From IMG/VR virus record IMGVR_UViG_3300045934_000106, positions 3,919 to 67,918 of that record: a DNA stretch of 64,000 nt; one strand, 5' to 3'. Source of the stretch: a virus. Shown here in pieces: positions 5,455 to 53,909 of this stretch. Made by a program: the position numbers and the translations under genes. Numbering within the stretch: the first letter of the stretch is position 1; each line of letters begins with the position of its first letter. Below the pieces are notes generated by a model, which did no database searches, had not been told where the DNA came from, and saw only the letters and a list, made by a program, of their open reading frames with translations.

Positions 5455-5460
5455 TGTCGG

Positions 5461-7301: not shown

Positions 7302-7591
7302 GCCGCCGCCTTCCGTCGCCGCATCCGCTCCATGGCCAGGGTGTAGCCGTTGTGATGGCCGAGCCGGTACGCATCGCCGAGCGTCTTGCAGCTCTTGAGC
7401 GTCACGCGCAGACGTTCGATGAAGCGCTGCCGATTCGTGGCCCATCCTTTCGCGAACGCGCGGCGTGCGCCGTCAGGGTGCATCGCGTGCCAGTGCGTCT
7501 TCGCGCACGACCGGCTGCAATACGTCTTGCGACGCATGATCTGCTTCGCTGAGAGCGGCGCGGTGCACCAGCGGCAAGCCGTGCGCGTCAT
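7298..7591 (-). CDS. zinc-finger hypothetical protein
   Basis: CRWC...YCSRSC; coupled at both ends. Confidence 0.65.
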   Translation of the reverse strand: MTRTACRWCTAPLSAKQIMRRKTYCSRSCAKTHWHAMHPDGARRAFAKGWATNRQRFIERLRVTLKSCKTLGDAYRLGHHNGYTLAMERMRRRKAAA

Positions 7592-7953
7592 CCGTCCTCT
7601 CCCTGTTCGCGGTCGCGATCATTCGCCGCACGCTGCCCGTAATCGAGCGGCACGGCCGTCGTCGCTTTGGTGAGGATGTCGGTGAGTGATTGCTTCGCCA
7701 GCTCCGACACGTTCGATGTGAACGCCTTGGCCGGTGTCGGCTTGGGCACGATGGTGAGGCGCTTCGTAATCGACAGCGCGGGGAGGTTGGCCGGCGGCTC
7801 TTCGCCGAGGGCCTCGTTCGCGCACAGCGCGCAGTAGACGTGCTTGCCGTTCGACACCCACCGGAACGGTTCCCCGGCGCCGATCGTCGTCGTGCAGACG
7901 CTGCGCTGGCACTTCAGGGGCCCGCGCGCGATGTCCCACTTGTGGGGGCTCAT
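7588..7953 (-). CDS. zinc-binding hypothetical protein
   Basis: CQRSVC...YCALCA; coupled at both ends. Confidence 0.65.
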   Translation of the reverse strand: MSPHKWDIARGPLKCQRSVCTTTIGAGEPFRWVSNGKHVYCALCANEALGEEPPANLPALSITKRLTIVPKPTPAKAFTSNVSELAKQSLTDILTKATTAVPLDYGQRAANDRDREQGEDG

Positions 7954-8555
7954 GAGGCAAACGCCTTTCGTTGGGCTTCACGCCTCGACATGCCTTTCGC
8001 AATCAGCTCATTCATGCGGGCGGTGCGTTCCTGCTGACCCCATGGGTCAGGGTTTTGATGACGGCGCCGTCGGGAAACCCCCTTCTCTGAAGGGGGTATG
8101 GGGGTAGTACCTGATCCGCAGATCGCAGACGAAGACGAAGAGCTTTTTTTGGGTTCTGGTTTGGGTTTCGCCAAAGGAAACCCAGAAATAACGCCTGGGT
8201 TTTTCCGAGGCCGTCCACCGAGCGCCCCGTTCTTCCTTTGTTTTCTACGAAATAGCGTCTGCTTCCGTCGCTCAATTTCCATGCGACGGTTTCTGTACTC
8301 TCCGTTGGAGTTTTCAAACTTGTGCTTAATGCGTGACCAGACGGACACCGCGAGTGCACCATCTGGGATCATCATTAGACGAGCTATAAGCTCATCGTCA
8401 TCGCCAGGGAGAAAGCCGCGATCCCACTGCTGAAACAGCATGGTCCAGTAGGCGCCGCGCTCTTCCAGTGTCATCGTCAGCATGCCCGTCAATGCGTCCT
8501 TGGCGTAGAGTTGGAACGCCGGCGGCTTCCCTTTTTTCTTCCGCTTCTTCGCCAA
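7950..8555 (-). CDS. YdaU/DUF1376-family phage replication protein
   Basis: PAFQLYAKD...MTLEERGAYWTML...WDRGFLP...NRRMEIE...NGALGGRPRK. Confidence 0.82.
   Translation of the reverse strand: MAKKRKKKGKPPAFQLYAKDALTGMLTMTLEERGAYWTMLFQQWDRGFLPGDDDELIARLMMIPDGALAVSVWSRIKHKFENSNGEYRNRRMEIERRKQTLFRRKQRKNGALGGRPRKNPGVISGFPLAKPKPEPKKSSSSSSAICGSGTTPIPPSEKGVSRRRRHQNPDPWGQQERTARMNELIAKGMSRREAQRKAFAS
8145..8206. repeat. TGGGTT/AACCCA repeats, possible replication-origin iterons inside the initiator gene
   Basis: Several TGGGTT(T) copies plus an inverted AAACCCA in an AT-richer stretch; position analogous to the lambda O origin. Confidence 0.35.
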
Positions 8556-22429: not shown

Positions 22430-25400
22430 CTACCGCCCAACGGGCAAGCGATGGCGCGGCATGCCCTGCAGGCCGGCCTTCCCGGTCGCGAGGCGCGCGG
22501 TGTGCACCAACTCCTCGAGCGCCCGATCGAGGGCGGCGCGTTTCTGCTCCGGCGTCATCGCCTCCGGCGACGCGGCGTAAATCTCATCGATCCCGTCCCG
22601 AATCTCGTCAATCCGCCGCTTGCCGGCCCGGAGCCGATTGGCGCGGTCCCCGGTAAAGCCGGCGACGCCCCGCTGCCGGGTATCCGCCCGTTCGCCCCAG
22701 CGGCCCAGGTCCTGGTGCTCGGCCGCCAGCTCGCGGCCGCGGGTGGCATCATTCACCCTGGCCGCACGGCGCATCGCCTGCTCGGCGCCCGTCATCTCGG
22801 TATAGGCGTCGTAGAACGCCTCGATCGAGACCGACTGCGACGAGAACGCCGCATCACGATGGAAGACATCGGCCAGCGGTTTCACCACGAACGGTACGTC
22901 GTGGCGGTCCCGCGGCGCCCGTTCCTTGACCGCCGGCAGCAGCCCCAGCTTGCCCAGCACCGGATCGGCGATGTAGATGACCGCGATCCGGCCCATGCCG
23001 GCCGTGTAGCCGTAGAACAGGTGTTCAATCTTGGCCGGCGACCACTTCATCAGGCGTCCGAGCGCCTTCGCCGTCTCGCTGGTGAAGTCGTTATGCTGGT
23101 CCTCCTCGGGCAGGTCCAGGTCGAACGGTGACACGATATTCCGGTCGCGGAACGTGCTGTAGTTCGCCATCACTTCGAGAATCGGCAGCACCACGGTCGG
23201 CATCACCGAGACGACCGTTTGTCCCATGTCCGAGTCGCTCGGCCGCAGCCGCTTCCAGTGCTCGGCGTTCCCCATCACCTCGTGTGCCGCGGCCTCGGCG
23301 AGGTCCGCCGCATAGCCCCACTCGAACGGTTTCGGGATGCGGATGAAGTAGTCGGCGCCGTGGAATCTCAGGTGCCAGTAGGTGCGCTTCTCCCACGCCG
23401 GCAGTTCTTGATACTCGTCGTCGTCGTGGTTCCACCAGGCGAGGATGGCGGAGAACAGCATCATCGCGGCGACCTTCTCAAGCGTGCCGACCGGATCCCG
23501 GGCCACCGTCTCACCGATGCGGACGTAGCCCTGCACCCGCGCATTGAAGAACGCCGAATAGCGGTTCAACTCCCGGGTCCACCGGCCGCCGCGGCTGAAG
23601 TCCGTCGTGACATCCCGTGCCGCGAGCGCCGCCCGGGTCAGCGTTTCCTCGTTGATCGTGAACTGCTTGGCGCCGAACAGCCGTTTCAGGACGCCCTGCT
23701 CCACGCCGCCGGCTTCGAGCGCCAGCTTGAACTCGCCCATGCGCGTCGCCATCTCCAGCTGTGAGGACACCATTTGCATGAACTGCAGCGGGTGCATCGG
23801 CCAGTAGCGCAGCAGCGCCTTGGCGTCCTGGCGGTTCAACCGGCCGAGGGTTTCGCGGATGCGTTGGCGGTCCTGGCCCACCATCGCCGTCTGATCGATG
23901 CCGGAGGCGAAGAACTGTTTGGCCACCTCTGTGCCGCGCACCAGCTCAATGAGCCCGCGGGCGGTGTCATAGCCCGGGATGAACCCGTAGCGCGACTGCA
24001 GGAAGGCGACGAGCGCATCACGGGCCGGGTTGCGCGCGATGAAGTGTGGCGTGAGCGTGGCGCCCGCCCGCAGCACGCGCGTGAACGGCTCGACGAACGT
24101 CGCCAGCACGCTGCTCTTCAGGTTCGCCCCAATGCGCGTGATCGCCTCGTAGAGCTCGGGATTGTGGACGTCGTAGAACTCGCGGCGGCCGTCCCGGATC
24201 ACCGTCACGAGGGTCTGGCCGGGCGTGACGAACGTGGCCGGCGTGAACAGCGTCACCAGATCCCGATCGGTCAGGCCGGTCGCCTGGATAAAGTCCGCGA
24301 TCGCGGGGTCCTGGCCGGCGAACGCCTCGAGGATCGCCATCACGTTCACCGTGTCGGGGATCTGCGGGGCGGGGATCTTCTCCAGTCCGCCGAGCCGCGA
24401 GGACGCTTTCGAGCGGTCCGCCTGGTTGGCGAGCGCCATCATCGCGCGGTTCTTCTCGACCATATCGACGATGGCGTGCGTGTTGACGATGATCGACTCG
24501 AACGGGTTGACGATGTCGAGCCCGGATCCTTTGATCCGCTTCACGGGCACGGTGCGGTTGCCGATGCGCATCGCGCCGCTCATGCGCGCCTCGACCTCCT
24601 CCATCACCCGCTTGAACGGGATGTAGAACTCGTTCAGCTTCTTGATCTTGGCGATCTGCTCGTCGCTCATCGCGCCGTACTGGCGCGCGTACTCGAGCAG
24701 CGCATCCTGATAGGCGTAGACCGCGTCCCGGGCCTGCTCGAACGCGGTGAAGTCGGCCCGTTGCTTGGTGACCTTGATCGTCTCGATCGCCTCGGTGAGC
24801 GAGATGCCGGTTTCGACCGGCAGCGTGCGCTTCTTGGTGTCCTTCAGCTCCACCACGCGCAGCGCGACGAGGTAATTGCCGAATTTCTTCAACGTCTCGT
24901 CGTTCTTGGAGACAGGCTTGAGGGCGTCGGCGAGACTGCCGCTGATGAACTTCCCATTGCGCGCCCGCACGCCCCATTCGAGGAAGGCTTGGGCTTTGCC
25001 GGCCGCCCCACGCGCCAGGCGCGCGAGCACGTAGGCGTTCTGGCGGAAGGCCACCGCGGCGCCGTCACGCATCGCGTCGACCGCGCGCTTGATCGGCTGC
25101 AGGTCGTCGACGAGGTTCGTGGCCGCGTGGCGCAGCGCCGCCTTCGGGTCGGTCGCGGCGAGCCGGAGCCCGGTCGCCGGGCCCTTACCGGTGTAGTCGA
25201 TCCGCGCTTCGAGCCGCTCCGGGTAGGACATGCCGAGATAGCCCTGCACGTTCGTACGGGCCTCGTGCAGCGCCTGCTCGAGATCGGGCTTGGTCGCGAG
25301 CTGCTTCGTGAACTCGGCGAAATAGTTCGGCGCGGCCGCCTGCACCGCCGAGGGGTCTAGTAGCCACTCGCGGAAGAAGTTCGCGGCGCCCTCCCGGCGC

Positions 25401-28400
25401 ACCTCGCCGGCCGTATAGGACGGGCGGGACGTGGGCACACCCAGCGCATGCAGTTCCGCTTTCCACCGTTTGTCGTTGCGCTTAATGCCGAGGATGGAGA
25501 TGTCGAGCCCGTGGCCAGCCTCGTGGAAGATGGTCATCAGGTCGTTGGCGACCTTCACGCGGATCGACTCGACGTCGTCTTTGTAGATGCCGCGCGCGCG
25601 CTGGCGGAAGTGCTTTTCGCGCACCGGCACACCGCCCAACGCCTGGCGGATCTGGTTCACGATCGCGCTCGGGCGGAGGTTGGCCGAGACGGGGAGCCCG
25701 GAGCCCTTCGGCGGCGGCATTGGTATTGGGCGCGGCGGCACACTGACCGGCAGGGACGAGACGGATCCGGACGGCGTGTCGTCGTCGCTGTCCTCGTCGG
25801 TGTCCGCGGCCGCCGGCGCCGGCTCGGGTGCGGGCTGCAGCGCCGTCATCCGCTCGCGCACGCGCGATTCGAGGTCCCGCTTTTTCACCGCCTCCCAGAG
25901 GTCGTCTTGTCCCGTGCCAAGATCGGCCGCGCTCAGTAGGCGCCGGGCGTAAATCTCGACGGCCTTGTCATCGCTGGCGGACTCGGCGCGCTCCATGCCG
26001 AGCTCGGCGCGCAGTTGGAACAGTTCCGCTTCCTTCGCTTCGAGTTCGGCCAGCTGCTTAAATGGCGCGTCCAGTAACTTGCGATTGGTCTCGACCTCCT
26101 GCTGGTAGCGCTCGGTCCACTTCTCGCTGTCGGCGATCTCGCTGGCCAGTCGCTGCACCCCGAAGTACGCGTCGAGACTGCGCGTGTAGCTCGGGATCGT
26201 GCCCTGCAGCTTGGAGTGCGGCGAATAGCCGGGCGACGTGCCAACGGGGTCCTTCTCCAGGCGCACGGAGATTGCGGGCGTGTAGAACTGGACCCCCTCA
26301 TCGTTGTGCGCCTGCGTCCCGCGCGTGTACTCCAGCGTGAACGGCCCGGCGGTCCCCATCGCCATCTCGTCGGCGCCGACATATGCGGCGTCGAGCTTCA
26401 TCACGGCCTCGACGTCGGCCTGGAATTGCTTGCGCGCCTCCGGATCTTTCCAGTCGTAGGTGCGCGGCTCGGAGCGCTGGATGGAGTCCATCCCCCACTG
26501 CTTGCCGGCCTTCACTGTCAGCGTGACGGTGGGCTTCTCGTGCCACGCCTTCAGTTCTTCGAGCTTCGCCTTCAGCTTCTCAATGCGCGGATGCGCGCGA
26601 CCGAGGAACTCGACGGTCCGATCGATCTCGCCCTGCGCCGCCTGGCGCTTGCGCGACCAGTTCGTATACCGCGCCCGAAGCCCCTTCAGGTCGCGCTCGA
26701 TATTGAGCATCTTGAGCGTGCGCGGATCGCCGCTGGCGAGCGCGGCGGCCACCTCCATGTCGAGCTGCGACGGGTCGACGTCGTCCATCTTGTTCACTTC
26801 GCCACGGAGCATCTTGTAGATGAATCCCTGCTTGATGGCGAGCAGCGACCAGCGGTATTCGTCGAACGAGCCTTCGGTGACGTAGCGCAGGACCTCGATT
26901 TCCTCGTTCGTGTTGCCCTGGCGACGGATGCGTCCCTCGCGTTGCTCCATGTCGGCCGGGCGCCACGGCACGTCGAGATGGTGGAGTGCCACGAGCCGCT
27001 TCTGCACGTTCATGCCGACGCCACCCTTGGCGGTGGAGGCGATCATGATGCGTACGCGCCCGTCGTTCATCGCAGCAAAGAGGCGGCCCTGTTCTCCTGG
27101 CGTCTGCGCCTGCTGAATGAACGCGATCTCGTCGGCCGGGATCTTGTGCTCTCTCACGAGGACGCGCTTCAGCTCCTCATAGAGGTTGCGCATGTGGCCA
27201 GCGGCGGCGATGTCCCGCATCGCTTCGTCGAACTCGGCCTCTTCGTCAACGATGTCGTCTTTGGCCTCGTCGTCCGTTTCGTCGTCAGCGGCCGCCTCCT
27301 CCTGGACCGGCGCCGCGGCGGCCTGCCCGCCCACGACTGACGGCGGGAGCGGGGGCATTTCCTTGGCCGGCGGCACGCCCACGTCGAGGAACACGAGCTG
27401 TGTGCCCTTGGTGGCGGCGTGCTCGGTGTAGCGCTTCGCCAGTTCGCGGGCGGCGGTGCGAATACGCCCGTTCGGATCGTCTTCGGCCTCTGGCTTCACG
27501 AGCCGCATATCGATCGCGGCGAGGCCCGCCTGCGTCGTGATCAGGAGGTGGTTGTCGTCCTTCGGATCGACGCGGCCCGTTTTCAGCGCCTCAATGCGGT
27601 CGTCGAGTTCGTGCATGAACTTGGGCATCAGCGGGTGCGGCTTGAGTGCGACAACTGTTGGGCGCCCGCCTTTGAGCTTCGGCAGCTTCAGCACGCCGCT
27701 CTGCTCGAGGTCATCGGTCGTCAGCACGTCGGTGAAGCGGCGGAACAGTTTCGACAGTTCGCGCAAGTTGCTCCACTCGCGCAGCCGGATCCGTTCCTTG
27801 TAGCCGGTGCCCGCGGCCTTCTCCATGGCCGGCGACGCCTCGGCGTAGCCACTCATCCACGAGTCGAAGCCAGCCATGCCGAACCGGTCTAGCGTGTGCT
27901 GCGCCAGATACCGGAACATCGTGTAGAGCTCGGAAATAGCGTTACTGACTGGCGTGCCGGTCGCGAACATCAGGTTGCGGTAGTTGCTGGCCTGATTGAT
28001 CAGCCGCGCCTTCAGGAACATATCCATCGCGCGGTCGGAGTCTGATCCGCGCAGCCCGACGATCTTGTTGTGGCGGCTGGAGAAATAGAGATTCTTGAAC
28101 AGGTGCGCTTCGTCGATCAGGAGCGCATCGACGCCGAGCTTCTCGAACTCGACCGGCGCGTCTTTCGCTTGCTGGTCGAGCCGCTTCTGCATGCGCGTGC
28201 GCAGGCGAATGAGCGCCCGGACAATATCCTTCGTGCTCTCCTCGACGCCGCGGCCCATCACGCGCTGCTTCGCTCGCTTGTCTCCGTCGGCGGCCTCGGT
28301 GACGGCTTGGTCGAACTCCTCGACCGTCATATCGAGGCTGTCGGCACCCTCAGCCAGAAGCTGCGCCTCCTGCTCCTCGACGAACGCCCTAAGCGTGTCG

Positions 28401-31400
28401 AGCGTGACGCCGACGCGCACGTACTGCGACATCGGGAGGATCACGGCGTCCCAATCGTTGTTCGCAATGCGCGCGATGAGTCGCTGACGGTTCTTCTTCT
28501 CGAAGTCGGCTTTCGCCGGCACGATCACGCGGGCGCCGGGATAGAACAGCAGATAATCGCGCCGCCACTGTTCGATCAGGTGGTTCGGCACCACGATCAT
28601 GGGCTTGCGCGCCAGGCCGAGACGCTTCATCTCGCCGGACGTCGCGATCATCGCGAACGTCTTGCCGGCGCCGACGGCGTGCGCCAGGAGCGTATTGCCA
28701 GCTTGCAGGGCCCGCCACACGGCATTCTTCTGCCAGGGCCGCAGCTGGATCTCAGGGTTGCTGTTCGGGATGATCAGCTTCGACCCGTCGAATTGCCGTG
28801 GCGCCTCGCGGTTAAACTGCGCGTTATAGAGCTTGGTGAGCTGGTCCGCGACCTGCGCATCCGCGCGCCACCACGTGCTCCACTCTTCGCGCAGCTGCTT
28901 CAGCGACTGCCGGTACTGCTCGGTGGCCTGCGTGTCGACGTAGGTCGACCCGTCCGGGTTCTCACGCTTCACCGTCGGCAGTTTGCCGTTGAGAGCCTCC
29001 GCCAACCACTCGGAGTACACGAGGTTGGGCGGCATGAGGTCGTCGCGGCCCCACCCTGTGACGTAGTACTGCACCCGGTGCGCGTTGTTCACGAGCTTGA
29101 TGTCGAGGTCGCTGTTGGCGCCGCGCGACTTGAAGAACTTATCGAATGCCGTGATCGGCACCCACGTTGCGCCGAACGGTGCGTCGAAGTCTTCGGGCGT
29201 GAGCGGCGCCGGCTGCACCTTGTTCAGCGCTTCGACGTTCCGCCGGTAGGTGTGATCCTGCAGCGCGGCGGCTTCCGCCGCGGCGAGCTTCGTGACGACG
29301 TCACCGGACAGATACTCCTCGGTCGTCACCCATCCCTTCGTCGCCGGATCGCGGTAGACCTCGGCGCCGAGTTCCTCGGTCAGCTGCTCAGCGGTCTTGC
29401 CCGTGAGCTGCGTCATGTAGGGCAGGTCGACCTGCCCCTTCCATGCGAGGCTCTGCACGAGCGCGTCCTGCGCGCTGGCGGCGGTCGTCGGCTCTTCGAC
29501 CGGCTGAATCGTGCGCTTGGTGAAGAACGGCGCCAACCCCTTGAACTGCAGGACGGCGGGCTTGCCCTTCGTCTCCTTGATAAACTCGACATCTTCGAGC
29601 GCCAGGATGCGCGCCCCGTTGGGATCGAGGTTGATGACGCGCGCGTTCTCGCGCGTGTTGACGTGGCCGAGCGCCGACACGAAGCGGTCGTAGTGCTTCC
29701 GTAGATCCGCCTGGGCGGCGGCGAGGGCCTCATCCGAGGCGCGCGATACCATCGCGTCGAGCACCTGCTGATAGGCGTCGCGGAGTGGGACGAAATACTT
29801 GGCGCGGTCGAGCGCCTTGCCCTTCAGCTCGAGCGGCTTCATCGTGCCCTTGTCAAACACGTAGGCTTTGCCCTTGTCGATCAGGAGGGTGCCTTGTTTG
29901 GCATCGGCCGGCGCGTCCTTCGCCACCTTGCGCGGCGGCGTCTTCGACGGCTTATAGGCGCCGGTCTCGAACTGCGCGACCGCGGACGCAAGGCGCTCCG
30001 GCGTCAGGTCCCCGACGACGTTGTATTGCGCGTCGCGCGTGCGTTGCATCTTGCCGGATCCGTCCGCCGTGCCCAGCACCATCTCGGGATGCTTCGCGAA
30101 ATACTGATTGACCGGGAACTTCACCTTGTCCTTCGCCCAGAACTCCCCCTTGGTGGCTTTCTTGGCATCCCGCACGACCTGAATGGTCTCGGTGTAGAGC
30201 CACTGTTGTGCGGCAACGCCCTTGACGTTCGGATCTTTGCGTCGCAACACGATCACGTCCGTTACCACTTCGGTGCCGGCGGTGGACTGGAAGGATGTGT
30301 CCGGCAGGCGGAACGCGCCGAGGAAGTCCGCGCGTGCGTCGAGATACTTGCGCACCACGTCACTCTGGCTGTCCATGGTGTAGCGCGACGTGACGAACAC
30401 GACGAGCCCGCCCGGACGAACCAGATCGAGCGCCTTGCCAAAGAAGTAGTTATGCAGCGACCGCGACATCACCTGCTTCTCGGAACCGCTGAACGCCGGG
30501 TCAAAGACCGGGAGCCTCCCGAACGGCACATTCGAGATGACGAGGTCGAAATAGTGCTCCGGCAATCGCGCTTCCTGCAGGGGCGACGTCTGGATATGGG
30601 CGCCTTGATAGAGCTGACGCGCAATGGCCGAGGCAATCGGCTCCATGTCGACGCCGTAGAGCGTCGTGCGCGTGTTGGTGCGGATGCTGGCCGGCATCGT
30701 GCCGAAGAAGTGGCCCGTGCCGATGGCCGGCTCGAGGATCGATCCGCCCTTGAACCCCAGACGCTCGACCAGATTCCACATCGCGCGCGGCAGCTCGTTG
30801 AAGGAATAGTGCGCGTTGACGGTGGAGTCTCCCATCGCGCTCAGTTCCGCCTTCGTGAGGAGGCGATCCAGCTCCTGGCGCGCGAGCTTGTGCCGAGGAT
30901 CTGTGACGTGGTCGACGCCACGCGGGTCAACGACGGGCGCCAGGTTGGTGTGCCCCCAGCCGATATAGCGCGCGAGCACGGCCTGCTCCGCATCGGTGGC
31001 CATGCGGTTGTTCTCGGCCCGCAGCGCTTTCAGCAGGCGCAACGCCGCCATGTTGTCGTCGAGTTTCTTCGTCCATCCGCCTTCGGTGAGGACCTCGGCG
31101 TTGTCGATGACGAAGTGTCGCGGGGCTTGCCCGCGCGCGTGACCGGCCGCTACTTCGGGGTCTGTGGCACTGTCGGCGGTGTCCACATGAGCGGGGCTGC
31201 TTGCTCCCGCGCTTCGTGGAGCGGGAGCCCCTGAGCCCTCAACAGCAGCTCGTGCTCGTGTGCCGCGTTGACCGCGTTTCTGACCGCCTGTTCGACGTCC
31301 CTCGGGTTGGCTCGGTGTGCTCGTCTGGTCGGCGGGCTGTGCTCCAGCCACACCCGCAGCACCTCCGTCTCGATCCCCTCCAGCGGCGTCTTCGTCACGG

Positions 31401-34400
31401 GCTCCGACGGCGTCCCCACGACGTGTATCGTCTTGTCCATCGGCCGTCTCCTGAGTGGTATTCTGCGCCTCTTCCGGCAGGTCTGCAACTCGGCGGTCTT
31501 CGTTCCGCAACCGGCGCCAGGCAATCTCAAAATGCCGCTGGAGCAGGGCCGCCAGCGGTGGGTAGTCCTCCTTGAACGTCAGCCACGCCAACTTGAATTC
31601 GACGACGCCATCATCAATGTAGGTGCGGACGATCCCCACCATATCGACGACATCCTGCGGATCGATGCCGGCGGTGAGCGTGGTGCCGTGGCGGGCGGCG
31701 AGTTTCTTCGCCAGCTCGTCGCGCTTCGCCTTGTTGGCCGCCTTGCGCGCGTCGAGCTCGGCGCGTTGCGTGTCGACGACGGGCGCCGATGGCTTCGCGT
31801 GCGGCGCCGTGACGAACGACGGCAGCACGTACTTCCATTCGGGCTCGACCTGCGGTGTCTTCGGCTTCACCGGCACGCCCGGCAACTCCACCGGAGGCGC
31901 CGGTTTCTCTGCCTTCGGTCCGATCTTCCGCTTCAGGACGATCTTCTCTGCGTCGGCGATGGCCTGATTCTTCTGAGGGTGTAGTGACTCCAGACGCGCC
32001 GCCGTGGGTACCGGCGACAAGACCTGAACTCTGACGGCCCACCGTTTACCGATGCCCGTATCTTCGAGGTCGACGGTGACCCTCACCTCTTCCCCGTTGG
32101 GGGTCCAGCCCTTGAAGCCTCCGACCGTATCAAGGTCGCGCTCGAATTGCGTAGTGTGCTCGCCGCCCGCGGTGAGTGGTGCCAGTCGCACGCGATCAAC
32201 CGGGATCCACTTCGACAGCTCGCCGTTCGGTTCGAGTGCGATCTTGACGTTGCGTGTCGCGCCGTCGAACGCATGCACGGTGCCCATGCCTTCGTCGGCG
32301 ATGACGCGTTCACCCACTTTGATGCCATTGGCGCTCGTCGACATCGCCTCGCCACGGCCCATCGGCTCTGAGCTGTCGGCCTTCGGCGTGACGGGCAGAT
32401 CCGGCGGCTTCGCCTGTTGAGCACCGAAGTCCAGTGACGGCAGCGTCATGCCGGCCTTGGTGCCGTGCCGCGTCATGAACGCCTTGATGGGCGCCATCGT
32501 CGCTTGCACCTGTTCGACGGTGGCCGTGGGCAACTGCGGATACGCACCCATCCCCGCGCGCAGGTGTCCGTGGATGAGGCCCTGGAGCTTGCCGGCCGCC
32601 TGCCCTGGCGCCTTCCAATACGGCCATCCGTCGCTATGGCTGTCGACTTCCTGCTGGAACGCTTGCAGGAAGCGCGACGCCGGACCGAGGACGGAATGCC
32701 GATCGAAGCGCGAGACCGCCTCCTCAATCTCGCTTCGGTTCATCCACACGGACGGCGCATCGGCCGGCTTGTCAGCCGCCGCGGGTGTCGCTTTCTGCTC
32801 CGCCTTTGCCGGGCCCAGCCCAGGATTGATGGTGCGCGCGTCGACAAACGTGACGGTCTCGTCGCCTTCCCACTGCACGCGGAGGTAATCACCCTTCGGC
32901 CCGGGCTCCTGTGCCGGCGACGCGACGTGGCCGATCTTCCACTCCATCGGATCGACGCTACGTTGGTCTGTGACCTGCTGGCCGGCGGTGTAACGCGCAG
33001 CCGCTGCGCCCATGCTTTCGATCACCTCGACCTTTGGCCCGGCGGCCGGTGTCGGCTTCTTCTCCTGCACTGGCGGTGCGGTTTTCTTCGAGGCGGCTGC
33101 CTTCGGCGCAGGCGCCGCGGCCTCTGGTGCGTGGGCGACGACGTCCATGCCCTTGAGCATGAGACTGTCGTTGGGGACCGTCCCTTCGCTGGTGGCGGTC
33201 TTGCCTTTGCCCTTGTTCGCGATCTTGAGTAGGCTCCACTTGTTGGCGCCGATCTTCGTGGCGGCCCAGGCGCCGGATTGGCGGCGCGTGCCGATGGGAT
33301 CGTCTTGTGGAAGTGATTTTTGACTTCCACGTTTCACTTCCACCGCCGGAGGTTGACTTCCAGCCGCCGCCTGCTCCGCTTCGTATTCCTTGAGGATCTC
33401 TGCGGCCAGTTCCTCGTCGGACATCTCCGCGGCGGCCTTCGGTGTCGCGGCGACAGGCGGTGGCGCCTTCTCCTCCGCCTTCGGCGTGACCGGTGCCGAT
33501 CGCTTCGGCACGCGGAACTTCATCTCACTGGCGGTCGTCGTGCGTTTCTTCGGGTTGCGCACGTGCATCGTGACTTCGTAGTCGATGGTGACGACGTCGC
33601 CGTCGCGCGTGACGCGAGTCACCTTAAACGTCGAGTCTTTCTCCTGCGGACTGTCTTGGATCCCAAGGATGTTCTTCGCGGCGGTGCGGCGCCGCGCGTC
33701 GTTCATCGACTCCCATTCGCCGCGGCCCATCGACGCCTTGATGTGCACCTCCGTCGCGTCCATGACCGCGTCGTAGGCTTTGCGCGTGATCGGGTCGGCT
33801 TTCTCGGCGATGTTCTCGGCGAAGCGGGGTGCGGCTGGCGTGTCCGCGAGCGCCGCGTCCGCTGCCGCGAGCACGGATTCAGGTGTCGGCGCGGTACCGC
33901 CCAACGGGATCTCAACCTGCTCGCCGTTGCGGTCGGAGAACACGAGCCGATCGAGCGTGACGGACTGTCCAGCGATCGACGTGTCGCCGTCGTACTTCTT
34001 GCCCAAGCCAGGCTTGACGTACGCCACGGTCGCATGCGGCTTGTAGTCGGGATGCGTGTCGGTGTGCGGCAGCGCATCGGCGATCTTCTTGTTCAGTCGA
34101 TGCAGGTCGTCGGAGTCGATGTCGACCTTGACGGCGTCGGCGGTGCCGTCCTCTACGTCCGGGAAGTGCGACGTCTTGCCGAACGTGACGCGGATCGGTG
34201 GCTCATCCGCCAGCAACGCGCGCACTTCATCGACGTAGTCGCCGTGCAGACCATACTTGACCGTGATATGCGGCTGCTCTTCGCGGCCGTGCTCAGGCGC
34301 CAGGTCCTCGTCGGGGATCTTCGCGGAGAGCGTACTGATCTGTTTCGCCGCATCCGGCGGCAGGTTCGCCTGCGTCGACGCGAACTTGTATTTGGTCTCG

Positions 34401-36526
34401 CGCTCCGGCTCTTCCTCGACGTCCTCCTCGACGTCGGCCATCGGATCGGGGAACGTCTCGCCGCGCTCTTTGGCGGCCGTCTCGCGGGACGTCTCGAGCT
34501 GAGACTGCTGCTCGCCCATCGCCCGCAGTTCCTTCGATCCGAGTTCTTCGCCGCGCGCGAGCTTCTCGCGGATGCGGGTATACGCCGCGTCCTGTTCCGG
34601 CGTGCTGATGCGATCCGCGCCTCGACGCTCTGGGCCGGTGTACAGGGTCCGGACGGGCGCCCGGTCCCGGCCCCCTGTACGGGCTGGGGGCGTCTCCGCC
34701 AGCGCGGCATCGACCGCCGCCAGCATCTCCTCCGGCGTTCGTTCGAGCGTCACGCCGCGCGCGTCAAGGATCGACTGCCAGTGTCGGACGTTCGCCTCGG
34801 CCTGCTGTAGCACCTCCGGCGAGGCACGCATGCCGCCCTTCTTCTTCGTGAGCTGGTCGAGCGTGCCCTGTGCGTGCAGCAGCTCCATCCGGATCTGATC
34901 GTCCGGCCACGCGGCGACATCGGCCGGCAGCTCGTCGCCCGGCTGCATGTCCTCCGGCGTCGGCACCGACAGCGTCGCGTCAATCTGCGCGAGCAGGTCT
35001 TCGGCCGCCGGGGCCTCAAGCGGGAGGTCCTGTCCGGTCTGTCCGGTCTGTCCGATCGCGGTCTGTCCGGCCGGATCGACGCGGGCGGCGGCCTGTGCGG
35101 GCGTCATGCCCGCCATCTCCGCCTCGGAGAGGCCGAGCGCTTCGAGCGGCCCGCGCATCTGTTGCGCGAGCTGGGACGGCGTCACCGTCTCCGGCGGTGG
35201 CGGCGGGACCGGCGGACGACCGAGCTGTGACACCGCGCCCGCGCCCCCGCCCATCACGGCGCCCGCGAACGCGCCCAGCACCGCGGCATCGTCGACGTTC
35301 TCGTGAAGCGGCCGGCCCGTGGCGAGGTTCTGCGCCACCTGCTCTTGTACGGACTGCGGCAGTTCTTCGAGGACCCCTTCGTTGAACGCCGCGAAGCCGA
35401 CCTCAAGGACAGCCCGCGTGAAGCCTTTACGGGCGTTCGGGTTGAGCGCGGCGGCGGCCAGCAACGTATCGACGTCGGCGACCCCCAGCGTCTCGGCGAC
35501 CTTGCCGCCGACGAACCCCAGCATCCCCGTCAACGCGCCGGACGAGATGGCGATCCCCGCTTGGCCAGGGCCGAGCACGCCGCCGGAGTCGTGCCGGATC
35601 TGTTCGGCGGTCTGCCCGCCCGCCACGGCACCCTCGCCGATGGCACCCGCGGTGACCGGCGACAGTGCTGGCGCCGCTTTGAGCAGCGGACGCGCCACGC
35701 CGAGCCCGCCCATCATCGACGGGGCGGATTCGAGCGCGGTATGGCCGATCACCGATGGATTCGACAGCGCCGCCATCGCCTTGTCGAGGAACCCGGAGGC
35801 GTCCTGCACGGTGGCGAACGCCTGTTTCTGCGGGTCCGAGTAGTAGCGCGACAGGATCTCCTTGGCGAGCGCCGGCTGATACCCCGCGGCTTCGGCCGCG
35901 CGCATGAACGCGCCGCCTTCGTAGCCGAGATCGCCCGGTCCGGCAGCATCCACCGCGCCGAGATACGCGGCCACGACGGCATCGGCCAGCCCAATCCCGG
36001 CTTCCGGCAGACCCACGACCCCCTTCGCGAGCGAGATGGCGGGGTCCTGTGCGTAGCGTTCAAACGGCGTGGCCGGTGAGAACGGCGCCGGCGGTGCCGG
36101 TGGCGGCGGCGACGGGAGCGCCTGCCCACTCAGGTTGACGACAGGACGGCCGATCCCCGCGCGCTGCTCGCCCGCGGACGGCGAGATCGGCACATGACTG
36201 CGCGCCATCGTCGCCCCGGTCGCTTGACGCTTCGCGGCCTGGACTTGCGCCACGGATGGCCCTGGCTGCATCGAAGCGGCCCCTGGCTGCATCAAACCTG
36301 GCCCCGGCTGCATACGTGCCCGGCTCGACATCGGTGCCAAGGGCGCCATCGTGGTTGACAGGGCGGGCACCGTAGGCGGCGTCGAGTCATCCGCCAGCGT
36401 AGAGTCGATGTCGGCGAGCAACGACGACAGGTCCGGCGTCTTCGTCCGGATGGTCTGGGACTCTTGCAGCGTCGCGTCGATGTCGGCCAGCAGCGACTGG
36501 AGGGAAGAACCGGGCTGCTGTGCCAC
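22430..36526 (-). CDS. giant polyvalent DarB-like protein: 2H phosphoesterase, N6-adenine methyltransferase, SNF2 helicase, zincin and LPD38 domains
   Basis: HITV/HATV 2H motifs; LEPAIGTG and NVPFG; HAVGAGKT, DEAH, ATGTP, QREGRIRRQGN; FHEAGH; YQELPAWEK...RIPKPFEWG. Confidence 0.9.
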   Translation of the reverse strand: MAQQPGSSLQSLLADIDATLQESQTIRTKTPDLSSLLADIDSTLADDSTPPTVPALSTTMAPLAPMSSRARMQPGPGLMQPGAASMQPGPSVAQVQAAKRQATGATMARSHVPISPSAGEQRAGIGRPVVNLSGQALPSPPPPAPPAPFSPATPFERYAQDPAISLAKGVVGLPEAGIGLADAVVAAYLGAVDAAGPGDLGYEGGAFMRAAEAAGYQPALAKEILSRYYSDPQKQAFATVQDASGFLDKAMAALSNPSVIGHTALESAPSMMGGLGVARPLLKAAPALSPVTAGAIGEGAVAGGQTAEQIRHDSGGVLGPGQAGIAISSGALTGMLGFVGGKVAETLGVADVDTLLAAAALNPNARKGFTRAVLEVGFAAFNEGVLEELPQSVQEQVAQNLATGRPLHENVDDAAVLGAFAGAVMGGGAGAVSQLGRPPVPPPPPETVTPSQLAQQMRGPLEALGLSEAEMAGMTPAQAAARVDPAGQTAIGQTGQTGQDLPLEAPAAEDLLAQIDATLSVPTPEDMQPGDELPADVAAWPDDQIRMELLHAQGTLDQLTKKKGGMRASPEVLQQAEANVRHWQSILDARGVTLERTPEEMLAAVDAALAETPPARTGGRDRAPVRTLYTGPERRGADRISTPEQDAAYTRIREKLARGEELGSKELRAMGEQQSQLETSRETAAKERGETFPDPMADVEEDVEEEPERETKYKFASTQANLPPDAAKQISTLSAKIPDEDLAPEHGREEQPHITVKYGLHGDYVDEVRALLADEPPIRVTFGKTSHFPDVEDGTADAVKVDIDSDDLHRLNKKIADALPHTDTHPDYKPHATVAYVKPGLGKKYDGDTSIAGQSVTLDRLVFSDRNGEQVEIPLGGTAPTPESVLAAADAALADTPAAPRFAENIAEKADPITRKAYDAVMDATEVHIKASMGRGEWESMNDARRRTAAKNILGIQDSPQEKDSTFKVTRVTRDGDVVTIDYEVTMHVRNPKKRTTTASEMKFRVPKRSAPVTPKAEEKAPPPVAATPKAAAEMSDEELAAEILKEYEAEQAAAGSQPPAVEVKRGSQKSLPQDDPIGTRRQSGAWAATKIGANKWSLLKIANKGKGKTATSEGTVPNDSLMLKGMDVVAHAPEAAAPAPKAAASKKTAPPVQEKKPTPAAGPKVEVIESMGAAAARYTAGQQVTDQRSVDPMEWKIGHVASPAQEPGPKGDYLRVQWEGDETVTFVDARTINPGLGPAKAEQKATPAAADKPADAPSVWMNRSEIEEAVSRFDRHSVLGPASRFLQAFQQEVDSHSDGWPYWKAPGQAAGKLQGLIHGHLRAGMGAYPQLPTATVEQVQATMAPIKAFMTRHGTKAGMTLPSLDFGAQQAKPPDLPVTPKADSSEPMGRGEAMSTSANGIKVGERVIADEGMGTVHAFDGATRNVKIALEPNGELSKWIPVDRVRLAPLTAGGEHTTQFERDLDTVGGFKGWTPNGEEVRVTVDLEDTGIGKRWAVRVQVLSPVPTAARLESLHPQKNQAIADAEKIVLKRKIGPKAEKPAPPVELPGVPVKPKTPQVEPEWKYVLPSFVTAPHAKPSAPVVDTQRAELDARKAANKAKRDELAKKLAARHGTTLTAGIDPQDVVDMVGIVRTYIDDGVVEFKLAWLTFKEDYPPLAALLQRHFEIAWRRLRNEDRRVADLPEEAQNTTQETADGQDDTRRGDAVGARDEDAAGGDRDGGAAGVAGAQPADQTSTPSQPEGRRTGGQKRGQRGTRARAAVEGSGAPAPRSAGASSPAHVDTADSATDPEVAAGHARGQAPRHFVIDNAEVLTEGGWTKKLDDNMAALRLLKALRAENNRMATDAEQAVLARYIGWGHTNLAPVVDPRGVDHVTDPRHKLARQELDRLLTKAELSAMGDSTVNAHYSFNELPRAMWNLVERLGFKGGSILEPAIGTGHFFGTMPASIRTNTRTTLYGVDMEPIASAIARQLYQGAHIQTSPLQEARLPEHYFDLVISNVPFGRLPVFDPAFSGSEKQVMSRSLHNYFFGKALDLVRPGGLVVFVTSRYTMDSQSDVVRKYLDARADFLGAFRLPDTSFQSTAGTEVVTDVIVLRRKDPNVKGVAAQQWLYTETIQVVRDAKKATKGEFWAKDKVKFPVNQYFAKHPEMVLGTADGSGKMQRTRDAQYNVVGDLTPERLASAVAQFETGAYKPSKTPPRKVAKDAPADAKQGTLLIDKGKAYVFDKGTMKPLELKGKALDRAKYFVPLRDAYQQVLDAMVSRASDEALAAAQADLRKHYDRFVSALGHVNTRENARVINLDPNGARILALEDVEFIKETKGKPAVLQFKGLAPFFTKRTIQPVEEPTTAASAQDALVQSLAWKGQVDLPYMTQLTGKTAEQLTEELGAEVYRDPATKGWVTTEEYLSGDVVTKLAAAEAAALQDHTYRRNVEALNKVQPAPLTPEDFDAPFGATWVPITAFDKFFKSRGANSDLDIKLVNNAHRVQYYVTGWGRDDLMPPNLVYSEWLAEALNGKLPTVKRENPDGSTYVDTQATEQYRQSLKQLREEWSTWWRADAQVADQLTKLYNAQFNREAPRQFDGSKLIIPNSNPEIQLRPWQKNAVWRALQAGNTLLAHAVGAGKTFAMIATSGEMKRLGLARKPMIVVPNHLIEQWRRDYLLFYPGARVIVPAKADFEKKNRQRLIARIANNDWDAVILPMSQYVRVGVTLDTLRAFVEEQEAQLLAEGADSLDMTVEEFDQAVTEAADGDKRAKQRVMGRGVEESTKDIVRALIRLRTRMQKRLDQQAKDAPVEFEKLGVDALLIDEAHLFKNLYFSSRHNKIVGLRGSDSDRAMDMFLKARLINQASNYRNLMFATGTPVSNAISELYTMFRYLAQHTLDRFGMAGFDSWMSGYAEASPAMEKAAGTGYKERIRLREWSNLRELSKLFRRFTDVLTTDDLEQSGVLKLPKLKGGRPTVVALKPHPLMPKFMHELDDRIEALKTGRVDPKDDNHLLITTQAGLAAIDMRLVKPEAEDDPNGRIRTAARELAKRYTEHAATKGTQLVFLDVGVPPAKEMPPLPPSVVGGQAAAAPVQEEAAADDETDDEAKDDIVDEEAEFDEAMRDIAAAGHMRNLYEELKRVLVREHKIPADEIAFIQQAQTPGEQGRLFAAMNDGRVRIMIASTAKGGVGMNVQKRLVALHHLDVPWRPADMEQREGRIRRQGNTNEEIEVLRYVTEGSFDEYRWSLLAIKQGFIYKMLRGEVNKMDDVDPSQLDMEVAAALASGDPRTLKMLNIERDLKGLRARYTNWSRKRQAAQGEIDRTVEFLGRAHPRIEKLKAKLEELKAWHEKPTVTLTVKAGKQWGMDSIQRSEPRTYDWKDPEARKQFQADVEAVMKLDAAYVGADEMAMGTAGPFTLEYTRGTQAHNDEGVQFYTPAISVRLEKDPVGTSPGYSPHSKLQGTIPSYTRSLDAYFGVQRLASEIADSEKWTERYQQEVETNRKLLDAPFKQLAELEAKEAELFQLRAELGMERAESASDDKAVEIYARRLLSAADLGTGQDDLWEAVKKRDLESRVRERMTALQPAPEPAPAAADTDEDSDDDTPSGSVSSLPVSVPPRPIPMPPPKGSGLPVSANLRPSAIVNQIRQALGGVPVREKHFRQRARGIYKDDVESIRVKVANDLMTIFHEAGHGLDISILGIKRNDKRWKAELHALGVPTSRPSYTAGEVRREGAANFFREWLLDPSAVQAAAPNYFAEFTKQLATKPDLEQALHEARTNVQGYLGMSYPERLEARIDYTGKGPATGLRLAATDPKAALRHAATNLVDDLQPIKRAVDAMRDGAAVAFRQNAYVLARLARGAAGKAQAFLEWGVRARNGKFISGSLADALKPVSKNDETLKKFGNYLVALRVVELKDTKKRTLPVETGISLTEAIETIKVTKQRADFTAFEQARDAVYAYQDALLEYARQYGAMSDEQIAKIKKLNEFYIPFKRVMEEVEARMSGAMRIGNRTVPVKRIKGSGLDIVNPFESIIVNTHAIVDMVEKNRAMMALANQADRSKASSRLGGLEKIPAPQIPDTVNVMAILEAFAGQDPAIADFIQATGLTDRDLVTLFTPATFVTPGQTLVTVIRDGRREFYDVHNPELYEAITRIGANLKSSVLATFVEPFTRVLRAGATLTPHFIARNPARDALVAFLQSRYGFIPGYDTARGLIELVRGTEVAKQFFASGIDQTAMVGQDRQRIRETLGRLNRQDAKALLRYWPMHPLQFMQMVSSQLEMATRMGEFKLALEAGGVEQGVLKRLFGAKQFTINEETLTRAALAARDVTTDFSRGGRWTRELNRYSAFFNARVQGYVRIGETVARDPVGTLEKVAAMMLFSAILAWWNHDDDEYQELPAWEKRTYWHLRFHGADYFIRIPKPFEWGYAADLAEAAAHEVMGNAEHWKRLRPSDSDMGQTVVSVMPTVVLPILEVMANYSTFRDRNIVSPFDLDLPEEDQHNDFTSETAKALGRLMKWSPAKIEHLFYGYTAGMGRIAVIYIADPVLGKLGLLPAVKERAPRDRHDVPFVVKPLADVFHRDAAFSSQSVSIEAFYDAYTEMTGAEQAMRRAARVNDATRGRELAAEHQDLGRWGERADTRQRGVAGFTGDRANRLRAGKRRIDEIRDGIDEIYAASPEAMTPEQKRAALDRALEELVHTARLATGKAGLQGMPRHRLPVGR
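31150..31440 (-). CDS. 96-aa protein overprinted in the +1 frame of the giant gene
   Basis: AGGAG RBS 7 nt before the ATG; helical, protein-like sequence while the host frame is a G/R/A/D-rich linker. Confidence 0.6.
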   Translation of the reverse strand: MDKTIHVVGTPSEPVTKTPLEGIETEVLRVWLEHSPPTRRAHRANPRDVEQAVRNAVNAAHEHELLLRAQGLPLHEAREQAAPLMWTPPTVPQTPK

Positions 36527-51786: not shown

Positions 51787-52467
51787 TTACCTCCGACGGC
51801 TCGTGCGACGGATTTCGTCCGGCGTGGGGGCGCTATGCACCGTCAGGTCCGCCTCCTGCGGTTTCTCCCAGCCTGCCGCTTCGTTGCGCGCGAATTCGGC
51901 TTTAGCGTCACTGCCCTCGACCGGTGCGAGCGCCGCTGCAACGGCGTTGTCACTGCCGATCACCTGCTGCTGCGGCTTGGCGATGCCACCGCTCGGCGCC
52001 AGGCCGAGACCAGGCAACCCGCGGGCGAGATCGCCCGTGCGGCGGATCTGCACGTCGCGATCGACCGGCGAGAGCCCTTCACGGTTGAGGCCCTCCGACT
52101 TCCCGGCATACCGATCGAGAAAGTCTTCGTCGAACGGCACACACTGATCGTCCGGGTCGACGCCGCGAATGCCGATCCAGCTCACGAACTGCGGGACCGA
52201 GGCGTCATACGGGTTCGGGTTGCGCGTGCCGGGCACGATCAACCGCTTCTGGAGGTGCTGCGCCGTCGCGTACGAGACCTGGAAGACCGCGCTGGGCGGC
52301 ACCACGTACGGATCGGCGTTGTGCATGTCCCGCAGCTCGAACGGCCCGCGGTTGATACAAAACACGGGCGTCTCCGGCGAGAGTTCCTGCTTCTGCTTGT
52401 GCGCCGGCAGCAACGTGATGACCTGCGAGAGGTCGATGTCCGTCGGCGGCGTATAGGTGCGTGCCAT
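51787..52467 (-). CDS. hypothetical protein
   Basis: GAGGAG RBS before MARTYT. Confidence 0.7.
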   Translation of the reverse strand: MARTYTPPTDIDLSQVITLLPAHKQKQELSPETPVFCINRGPFELRDMHNADPYVVPPSAVFQVSYATAQHLQKRLIVPGTRNPNPYDASVPQFVSWIGIRGVDPDDQCVPFDEDFLDRYAGKSEGLNREGLSPVDRDVQIRRTGDLARGLPGLGLAPSGGIAKPQQQVIGSDNAVAAALAPVEGSDAKAEFARNEAAGWEKPQEADLTVHSAPTPDEIRRTSRRR

Positions 52468-52500
52468 GGGTCGAAAGCTCCTCACTGCCGCGTGCCACGA

Positions 52501-52530
52501 GCGCGGGTGATGGTGATGCATCACCCGCGC
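52501..52530 (-). terminator. perfect 12-bp hairpin downstream of the capsid gene (stabiliser/attenuator)
   Basis: GCGCGGGTGATG / CATCACCCGCGC; no U-tract. Confidence 0.5.
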
Positions 52531-52565
52531 TATACGCGGCTCCGCGTGCTCTGGTCAGACGGGGC

Positions 52566-53909
52566 TTAGGCCGCCTTCACCGCGAGCTGGTTGACGTCGA
52601 TCCCTTCCCCGCGCGCGTTCACGTTCGGACGCTGGCAGTGGAAGTTGTCCTGAATGAGGTAGTAAGCGGTGAACTCGTCGTACTCCGCCACCCACTTCAG
52701 GACGTGACCCTCATCGGCCGCCCACTCGCCTTCGTTCTCGACGTAGCGGGTCCACGAGGCTTTGTTGATGCCGAAGAGCATGCGATAGGGCGCATCGCGG
52801 TCCACGAAGAGCGGGATGTCGCCGTAGGTGATGGCGCGGCCCGCGGGCTTCTTGGCCGCGACGGTGCCGCCGTCCGGACGCGAGAGATCCGCGCCCGTGT
52901 AGCGCCGGTCGGCCTCGAGCAACGTCAGATAGGCGCGGCGGACGGCATGCTCACACGCGAACATGTCGAACTGCTTGCCCGTCTTGATGTTGACCGCATC
53001 GACCATCTGCTGGATGGCGTCCAGCGAGAGCGCGCCGATGCTGGTGGCGACGTAGGCGTTGAGAATGGGATAGGTCGTGCGGCTCAACCCGTGGTAGGTC
53101 GCGACGTAGGTGCCGTCGTCGATCCCCGCGAGCAAGCCTTCCGGCTCCTGGTTGAGCGAGGTCTGCGTGGCCGACTGCGCGATGACGATCTTCGCGTTGT
53201 CGTCGCAGGTGATCGCTGTGTCGACCGTCACGGACGTCAGGGCGGTGGCGACCGCGGTAACGGTGGCGGTGCCCTGAATGTTGTTCGACGAGTCGAGGAA
53301 CGCGAGGAACATGCCCGACGTCGCGTCGCCGTCGATGAAGCGCGCGCCGCCGGCCGAGCCCGCCACGTTGGCCGGGGAGTCGACTTCAATGGTGGTGTCG
53401 GCGGTCTGCGCGCCGTTGACCAGCGCGAGAATGCCCGACCCATAGCCCCACACGACGCGATTGCGATGGAACGCCATCGCCTCGGTGAGCGCTTCCATTT
53501 CCGCCGGGATGACCTGCTGCCAAGACCCCTTCTTGTTGCGCGACTGTGCGATGACGTTCCGCTCGAACCCGACGCGCCCATACGTGTTGCGCATCGGAAC
53601 TTCGAAGTTCTCGTACACCGAACGGCCGGCCTGCGGCAGACGGCCGCGATTCGGGATCGAGCCAATCGACCGGTTGCGGCCGATCATGATCGGGACCACC
53701 TTCTGGCGGCCGACCCATGAATCGTCCTTGACCTCTGACTCCATCCACTTCGTCATGAGGTTCTCTTCGTTCACTTGGCTGTGGATCACGGGACCGTAGT
53801 CGTCTTTGAACAACGGATCCCACTGCGTGGTGTCGGACCCCGGCATCCACTGACGGTCATGCAGGCCGTCGAATCGAAGGTCCGAGCACGCGTGAAAACT
53901 GAATTTCAT
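52566..53909 (-). CDS. major capsid protein
   Basis: LFKDDYGPVIHSQVN...GRNRSIG...LPQAG, WGYGSGILA, EPEGLLAGID, C-terminal RPNVNAR; follows the scaffold; AGGAG RBS. Confidence 0.8.
   Translation of the reverse strand: MKFSFHACSDLRFDGLHDRQWMPGSDTTQWDPLFKDDYGPVIHSQVNEENLMTKWMESEVKDDSWVGRQKVVPIMIGRNRSIGSIPNRGRLPQAGRSVYENFEVPMRNTYGRVGFERNVIAQSRNKKGSWQQVIPAEMEALTEAMAFHRNRVVWGYGSGILALVNGAQTADTTIEVDSPANVAGSAGGARFIDGDATSGMFLAFLDSSNNIQGTATVTAVATALTSVTVDTAITCDDNAKIVIAQSATQTSLNQEPEGLLAGIDDGTYVATYHGLSRTTYPILNAYVATSIGALSLDAIQQMVDAVNIKTGKQFDMFACEHAVRRAYLTLLEADRRYTGADLSRPDGGTVAAKKPAGRAITYGDIPLFVDRDAPYRMLFGINKASWTRYVENEGEWAADEGHVLKWVAEYDEFTAYYLIQDNFHCQRPNVNARGEGIDVNQLAVKAA

Follow-up and report, generated by a model that had tools for sequence, protein, structure and literature searches.

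The window analysed here, a stretch of 64,000 nucleotides, comprises positions 3,919 to 67,918 of the IMG/VR virus record IMGVR_UViG_3300045934_000106 (~68 kb, 66% G+C). The minus strand bears a late operon encoding the large terminase (TerL), the portal, the major head protein and a tail fibre, and at the end of this operon lies the gene of a 4698-residue DarB-like polyvalent protein, hereafter called the giant. Inside the giant gene, in the +1 frame and just ahead of the methyltransferase module, we found a 96-codon open reading frame (ORF) that, judged from its sequence, is very probably a real and selected coding gene. The features on which the description depends are the following, with pN/pS standing for the ratio of nonsynonymous to synonymous changes and pLDDT for the predicted local distance difference test score.

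22430..36526, minus strand: host gene encoding the 4698-residue DarB-like polyvalent giant (phrog_10089, E = 0).

31448..31452, minus strand: Shine-Dalgarno-like AGGAG, 7 nucleotides 5' of the ATG, with purine-rich equivalents in loci L006, L008 and L013 and in cultured phages.

31150..31440, minus strand: putative embedded +1-frame gene of 96 codons plus stop, encoding a predicted small four-helix protein of a putative, remotely TnpV-like superfamily (open frame, 41 homologues, pLDDT 88.7, alternative-frame pN/pS 0.38-0.75).

31148..31441, minus strand: giant-frame linker across the small gene (residues 1696-1793), of low complexity, with a giant-frame pN/pS of 1.04-2.72.

The ORF begins with an ATG (31440..31438) preceded by a 7-nucleotide spacer and the AGGAG site (31452..31448), and terminates at the stop codon 31152..31150, its translation ending in ...VEQAVRNAVNAAHEHELLLRAQGLPLHEAREQAAPLMWTPPTVPQTPK. 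It overlaps residues 1696-1793 of the giant in the +1 frame, and these coordinates and the translation agree with the initial annotation, which had described an AGGAG-N7-ATG start and a 96-residue +1-frame product. Across the overlap, the giant frame consists to 83% of Gly, Ala, Arg, Asp, Pro, Ser and Thr and to only 5% of hydrophobic residues, compared to 52% and 27%, respectively, for the whole giant, in keeping with its earlier description as filler. The end of the small ORF coincides with the start of conserved sequence that belongs to the giant only (ARGxAPRHFVI...), and the PHROG methyltransferase matches start from residue 1823, which bears out the placement of the ORF just before the methyltransferase module.

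The length of the ORF by itself is not telling. In the +1 frame of the giant, 12 runs of 96 or more codons are free of stops and five ORFs of 96 or more residues begin with ATG, and the probability of meeting no stop within 96 codons is 0.097. As the bare openness of the frame is within chance, the case rests on homology, on the codon-position signal and on conservation. Besides the embedded ORF, the giant has further same-strand ATG-initiated ORFs of at least 96 residues, located on the minus strand at 34153-34710, 33703-34077, 29413-29733 and 25933-26382 in the +1 frame, and at 32310-32627 and 24018-24977 in the +2 frame; some of them may be the other overprinted genes of the initial annotation.

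Substitution patterns were compared between the two frames, in which alternative position 2 falls on giant position 3. In the alternative-frame alignment of seven sequences, differences were highest at alternative position 3 in 21 of 21 pairs, and the six embedded pairs summed to 179, 159 and 227 differences at alternative positions 1, 2 and 3, respectively (chi-square p = 0.0015), with position 2 being the lowest. In all 21 pairs the overlap yielded a pN/pS of 0.38-0.75 in the alternative frame and 1.04-2.72 in the giant frame, values that come from saturated divergences and from an alignment built in the alternative frame, a bias mitigated by the giant-frame controls. Over the same DNA, amino-acid identity amounts to only 30-42% in the giant frame versus 51-58% in the alternative frame. 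The methyltransferase region, aligned in the giant frame, displayed the normal pattern, for example 98, 76 and 166 differences at giant positions 1, 2 and 3. Moreover, in a sliding scan of 60 windows of 60 codons over residues 1601-3499, the segment 1712-1771 was the only one with fewer differences at giant position 3 than at position 1. The same scan detected no alternative-frame signal at the +1 ORF 29413-29733.

The Erwinia phages PEp14, Pavtok and Stean could be aligned in the giant frame without saturation. Their giant-frame pN/pS is 0.07-0.23 in the flanks and 1.00-1.36 in the overlap, where the alternative frame has a pN/pS of 0.29-0.36; in addition, changes at giant position 3 drop from ~20-27% of codons in the flanks to ~10% in the overlap. 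To judge from these patterns, purifying selection is acting on the alternative frame, whereas the linker residues of the giant frame appear to be free of it. What look like motifs of the giant-frame linker are shadows of alternative-frame motifs, VAGEQP of WLENSP and HVDTAD of MWTPPT, and of the 24 giant-type proteins P0003-P0026, 14 contain both shadows at the correct spacing. The linker does not differ among near-identical members of the giant's cluster, which are uninformative in this respect.

These data bear on the simplest alternative, namely that there is no gene, and that the open +1 frame and the protein similarity arise incidentally from the high G+C content and from the conservation of the giant frame. 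The frequency of long off-frame ORFs in a giant of 66% G+C would fit this explanation, as would the lack of a matching Pfam or PHROGs family. However, the giant frame is the less conserved of the two over the very same bases, with a pN/pS of at least 1, homologues of the small protein occur in places that have no open giant frame or no giant frame at all, and the fold of the small protein is predicted with confidence. We consider this explanation hardly tenable.

A homology search of the 96-residue sequence, one of the checks put forward in the initial annotation, retrieved a family. Using phmmer against 1.84 billion cluster representatives, we obtained 41 proteins at E <= 1e-3, 26 of them at E <= 1e-10 and the best at 1.1e-21, which are 42-65% identical and mostly of 92-140 residues. 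The family consensus reads PLxGLExxVLxxWLENSPxLRxAY...VExAVRxAV...ELxLRAQGLxxxEAxExTRPAMWTPPT, in which W31 and R54 are invariant. The top ten homologues are metagenome singletons, mostly on short contigs, and the sequence of P0133 is identical to the embedded copy of L006; therefore the 41 matches were not counted as independent free-standing genes. Two proteins, P0170 and P0146, were examined as natural fusions and rejected, since the two frames, that of the giant and that of the small protein, alternate within each called protein, as expected of indel-rich assemblies. The longer members P0153 and P0130 have repeats of a basic helical motif (~xAFxKNxAKSKAxRxA) 5' of the domain, and P0153 possesses an apparent second, divergent copy of the domain.

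AlphaFold2, supplied with the 41 sequences, produced a model of four helices with a pLDDT of 88.7 and a predicted template modelling score (pTM) of 0.76, consistent with the folded helical protein that had been proposed from the sequence. Structural similarity search of this model using Foldseek gave no match at E <= 0.001 in PDB or BFVD, and the highest Z in a wide VIA-align search, 5.9, lay inside the noise for helical bundles. In the protein atlas the best score was 0.85, to unnamed clusters only.

Scanning with the small-protein alignment yielded seven metagenome loci, five of them distinct, and one contig of a metagenome-assembled genome (MAG) of Casimicrobiaceae (L013), making seven distinct loci together with the window. 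Four of the seven (the window, L006, L008 and L013) have a long giant frame running through the small ORF, which lies in its +1 frame and is open in all four. Their ATG is located 18-26 codons before the PLxGLE motif and is preceded by a Shine-Dalgarno-like site, AGGAG in the window and GGGAGG, AAGGAGG and AGGGAG in L006, L008 and L013, respectively. Homologues and a conserved alternative frame with its ribosome-binding site, whose absence from related giants would in the initial annotation have spoken against the gene, are thus both present.

In the other three loci (L009, L011 and L012) the small protein is encoded outside any giant. L009 is a stand-alone copy that has no open giant-equivalent frame and is followed by unrelated sequence. 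L011 (1-3812) is a free copy in a bacterial chromosome and follows an 86-residue ORF with a stop/start overlap; its neighbours are a tyrosine integrase (2071..3381, minus strand) and a type I HsdM methylase (1..1956, minus strand), with SurA-like and UPF0182 genes nearby. In L012 the small protein forms the C-terminal domain of a 379-codon ORF with membrane helices at the N-terminus. Among the embedded loci, L013 (positions 1-4501) has a 1500-codon giant frame that retains the small ORF and ~60 residues of the N-terminal region of the methyltransferase, and after 'AEQAVLA' continues into unrelated polyvalent-protein sequence without the methyltransferase-helicase dyad; on this sequence, the dyad is lost or swapped by recombination. 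Among 400 scanned genomes of the class of this MAG, no match was found outside that MAG, and a scan of viral contigs with the family alignment A2 gave 32 pattern matches, none of which was confirmed.

Altogether, the homologues, the conserved frame with its ATG and Shine-Dalgarno-like site, the selection on the alternative frame, the copies outside giants and the confident fold are the reasons for which we take the 96-codon ORF to be a gene. From the conserved Shine-Dalgarno-like site and ATG we infer that the small protein would be translated separately.

Scanning alternative frames upstream of the methyltransferase domains in other DarB-like giants, a further check proposed at the outset, uncovered sister +1 ORFs in the same linker. 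The family hidden Markov model (A1) matched none of four distant viral giants (L002-L005, 36-41% identical) at E <= 1; when the +1 frame of their pre-methyltransferase linker was read directly, each was found to contain an open ORF with a Shine-Dalgarno site and an ATG, encoding a helical protein. In Erwinia phage PEp14 (NC_016767.1), the corresponding ORF, MNLNNWVSQARTHWKEHQP..., occupies 31778..32095 in the +1 frame within the coding sequence (CDS) of a 4914-residue DarB-like protein. A tblastn search with this ORF retrieved 21 phage records (Erwinia, Klebsiella, Pseudomonas, Agrobacterium, Ochrobactrum, Vibrio, Sinorhizobium and Microcystis), and one with the +1 ORF of Ralstonia phage Cimandef retrieved 40 records, 31 from Ralstonia and nine from Burkholderia, the latter including Bcep22, DC1, BcepIL02, BcepMigl and CSP3. 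The ORF of Bcep22 (NC_005262.3) lies at 52337..52660 inside gp75, in the +1 frame and behind AAGGAGG. With the ORF of the window as query, tblastn against phages gave chance-level rows only.

The offset was +1 in nine of nine continuous giants checked, and the +1 ORF was open in the 10 cultured-phage loci examined, with GAGG, GGAG, AGGAG or AAGGAGG before the ATG. In the 61 cultured-phage records the giant CDS is annotated under the match, which was never called as a separate CDS, with the exception of Pseudomonas phage Itty13 (NC_070969.1 6645-7723, L019). This genome is G+C-rich, and the sole CDS annotated there (5006..8467), for a hypothetical protein on the opposite strand, is probably a false antisense call. 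On this evidence the feature is general across the DarB-like giants of many phages, a larger finding than first reported.

These sister ORFs may also connect the family to a known one, TnpV. By hhalign, the family of the window (A2) and the PEp14-type family (A5) align with a probability of 83.4% (E 8.5e-6) over 64 columns covering the helical core. Among the 10 A5 members, seven have the Pfam family TnpV (PF14198) as their top match, the best at E 1.8e-4, and so has the Bcep22 ORF (E 0.045), although the TnpV gathering score of 27 bits was never reached, the best sister ORF scoring 20.7. The matches of the PEp14-type and Bcep22 ORFs, small helical proteins of ~100-125 residues, cover most of the TnpV profile. 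The window's own family gave no match to TnpV: none for the window ORF at E <= 1, none among the 41 members at E <= 0.01 and none among three locus copies. In the protein atlas, a TnpV-bearing cluster appeared at rank 19 only, with a score of 0.80. The Cimandef-type ORF, with an hhalign probability of 6.4% over 25 columns against A5, is not demonstrably akin to the other families. The resemblance to TnpV noted in the initial annotation may hence survive as a remote one, reached via the sister ORFs, whereas its extension to a Pfam match of the window family does not hold; "TnpV-like", as judged by these profiles, would denote remote homology and not family membership. TnpV is encoded by transposons, in elements of the Tn4451 type, and resembles the embedded ORFs in being a small helical protein of mobile elements; unlike TnpV, the gene described here is embedded out of frame in another gene. 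In conjugative elements, TnpV genes may adjoin methyltransferase-helicase genes. A tblastn search of a plasmid collection with the window ORF and the L005 ORF found no match.

The co-folding with the methyltransferase module that the initial annotation had suggested passed its controls. The small protein, with its 41-row alignment, and giant residues 1794-2560, with a 17-row alignment, reached interface scores (ipSAE) of 0.77, 0.75 and 0.75, against 0.00 for the best of three controls; the partners have a pLDDT of at least 82, and the runs share at least 97% of their contacts. In the calibration of the method, the mark applied was reached by 58 of 80 solved complexes and two of 110 mismatched pairs, counts that are only approximate here because our own alignments were used. 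For neither chain did the sequence identify a solved relative, so that the result is unlikely to be the memory of a known complex. In the predicted complex, residues 1-9, 21-26 and 57-78 of the small protein interact with giant residues 2234-2328; the predicted contacts include small-protein residues 4-8 and 61-69 and giant residues 2288-2296 and 2313-2328. The giant stretch corresponds to the following feature.

29543..29827, minus strand: predicted docking surface (giant residues 2234-2328), a highly conserved stretch between methyltransferase and helicase, assigned from the co-fold interface.

The invariant columns of this stretch are G2287, N2294, D2301, P2302, N2303, R2306, L2310, E2311 and G2321. 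On the model we lean somewhat towards the small protein binding the giant.

Taken as a whole, the observations are probably best explained by an embedded gene whose product is an accessory subunit or assembly factor of the giant. We propose that, on the late mRNA, some ribosomes would initiate at the ATG of the small gene by means of its own Shine-Dalgarno site, while others would translate the giant in frame 0 through the same bases, there producing a flexible low-complexity linker that must stay stop-free. The small four-helix protein would then dock on residues 2234-2328 of the giant, within the methyltransferase-helicase module. A role as accessory subunit or assembly factor appears the most likely one from the single co-fold and the conserved position, and encoding in cis would ensure that the small protein and the giant are made together.

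The gene could instead be real and its product independent of the giant, as a small regulator, a DNA-binding factor or a moron residing in an insertion-tolerant linker; for transposon TnpV, a regulatory or DNA-binding role has been guessed. The copies away from giants, next to integrase and type I methylase genes in L011, stand-alone in L009 and fused to a membrane protein in L012, agree with such independence, and so do the retention of the small ORF in L013 without the downstream methyltransferase-helicase and the family and fold searches, which returned no function. Nevertheless, the position right before the methyltransferase module is conserved in very divergent giants, and the co-fold places the small protein confidently on a conserved domain of the giant with controls at 0.00. 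We judge an independent product unlikely.

Several points weigh against the proposal of an embedded gene for a partner of the giant. Probably, many of the 41 homologues are themselves embedded, their genes having been called on fragments. Scans of the 96-residue protein against Pfam and PHROGs found no family and assigned no function, and the TnpV scores of the sister ORFs stay below the gathering score, as mentioned above. The binding prediction comprises one in-silico co-fold with one chosen region of the giant, and the pN/pS values of the window family carry the bias of their alignment and of saturation. In addition, no single-nucleotide polymorphisms were found in the four sequencing runs that cover the region. 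Soil metagenomes contain the sequence, and a run from an RNA library (soil metatranscriptome) has an identical 705-nucleotide contig over 30947-31651, spanning the whole overlap, which is the only expression-related datum on the embedded ORF. This contig may reflect transcription of the late operon, with which it is compatible; it shows neither strand nor start, and DNA carry-over is possible.

The organization of several relatives sheds light on how the arrangement could have arisen, and one further feature of the window is relevant here.

31184..31186, minus strand: GTG codon of giant residue V1781 (HVDTAD), inside the ATGTGG of the small gene; the methyltransferase-helicase proteins P0022 and P0026 begin here (MDTAD...).

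At the V1781-equivalent place of L011, a GTG start is listed. In Sinorhizobium phage PBC5 (NC_003324.1 25824-26863, reverse complement, L025), the annotated N-terminal half of the DarB-like protein shares both the frame and the stop of the small ORF, and from locus position 133 onwards the methyltransferase frame is open as well. PBC5 may represent a split giant, a natural frameshift or an old sequencing indel. The split forms and the free-standing copies fit the read-through model of the initial annotation, in which a small gene and a methyltransferase-helicase gene were bridged by the polyprotein frame; such a capture is plausible on sequence grounds, and under it the linker would be derived and the small gene, as the frame under selection, older.

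PBC5 also raises the question of whether the small domain is produced mainly at the C-terminal end of the giant's N-terminal half, by ribosomal frameshifting into the +1 frame. Its N-terminal part, being in frame with the small ORF, is what this mechanism would produce, and in the window the alternative frame is open for 46 codons 5' of the ATG. However, that upstream stretch is Arg-rich junk bounded by a stop, every copy examined has a conserved ATG and Shine-Dalgarno-like site at the head of the ORF, and PBC5 may hold a single indel or sequencing error. Frameshifting is accordingly regarded as highly improbable compared to separate initiation of an embedded gene.

Known systems share parts of this architecture. 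The products of Rz and Rz1 are partners. As with the Rz/Rz1 spanins of lambdoid and many other phages, the larger gene in the present case contains, in its +1 frame, an entire small gene that has a start of its own, the partnership being here only predicted. By contrast, the proteins and their function are unrelated, and here the outer frame encodes a disordered linker whereas the inner gene carries the selection and occurs alone elsewhere. An embedded Rz1 is mentioned in PMC10269572. The arrangement also resembles viral overprinting and families remodelled out of frame, in which one DNA stretch is used in two frames, and the compositional bias of the younger frame fits what such reports describe (PMC8788219, PMC8227390, PMC3494269). 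In classical overprinting a new small gene arises within an old one, whereas here the small gene looks old and selected and the linker of the giant looks derived.

In phage P1, the small Dar proteins Ulx, DdrA, DdrB, Hdf and DarA are encoded near darB and are required for packaging and function of DarB (PMC12810830, PMC9144972). According to the paper on phage JC1 (PMC9144972), the giant of Bcep22-like phages is virion-associated, and these phages have yielded no homologues of the accessory Dar proteins of P1; a hidden partner would fit this gap. The small protein shows no sequence relationship to P1 Ulx, a candidate rejected at a hhalign probability of 0.07%; ulx is a separate gene downstream of darB, unlike the embedded ORF. 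Within the searchable full texts, no gene embedded in DarB-like or polyvalent proteins was described, and the accessible text of Iyer et al. 2017 (PMC5512222) contains neither "TnpV" nor "overlapping".

The giant itself is composed of a 2H phosphoesterase domain (residues 723-838), a methyltransferase from residue ~1823, an SNF2 helicase (2593-3204) and an LPD38 domain (4369-4516), with Pfam matches to ResIII, SNF2, Helicase_C, Eco57I and LPD38. It is DarB-like in having a methyltransferase-SNF2 helicase dyad in a multi-domain giant of the virion module. The 2H phosphoesterase domain (34013-34360, minus strand) matches Pfam 2_5_RNA_ligase2 (E 4.8e-12) and weakly Acb1 (E 0.017), a protein acting against the cyclic-oligonucleotide-based antiphage signalling system (CBASS); by this similarity, it may be a counter-defence module that degrades cyclic nucleotides.

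DarB-like giants, which are studied as injected weapons against restriction, make up a fifth of the genome in Bcep22-like phages and the podoviruses related to them. They have so far been annotated as one gene; if the embedded gene is true, the annotation, mutation and expression of these loci would change, as deleting or recoding the linker would silently remove a partner protein. Cultured carriers, among them Bcep22, PEp14, Pavtok, SopranoGao, Atu_ph08 and VvAW1, allow direct testing. The small protein is a candidate for the accessory factors of the P1-DarB type that were not found in the Bcep22-like group. A bolder form of the proposal, which we advance tentatively and with some doubt, is that the TnpV-like protein would be a partner on which methyltransferase-helicase modules of the DarB type have depended since ancient times, and that in phage giants its gene was engulfed by the polyprotein frame and persists, hidden, in the +1 frame. 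Both products would then come from one mRNA, maybe with co-translational assembly, and the giant would depend on the small protein to fold, to be packaged or to act against restriction, which would make the small protein the missing accessory Dar factor of Bcep22-like phages and give the TnpV proteins of transposons a testable function. The embedded gene would provide the first functional lead for the long unexplained TnpV-like proteins, and a clean example of how translation across an older gene in a different frame creates a polyprotein linker.

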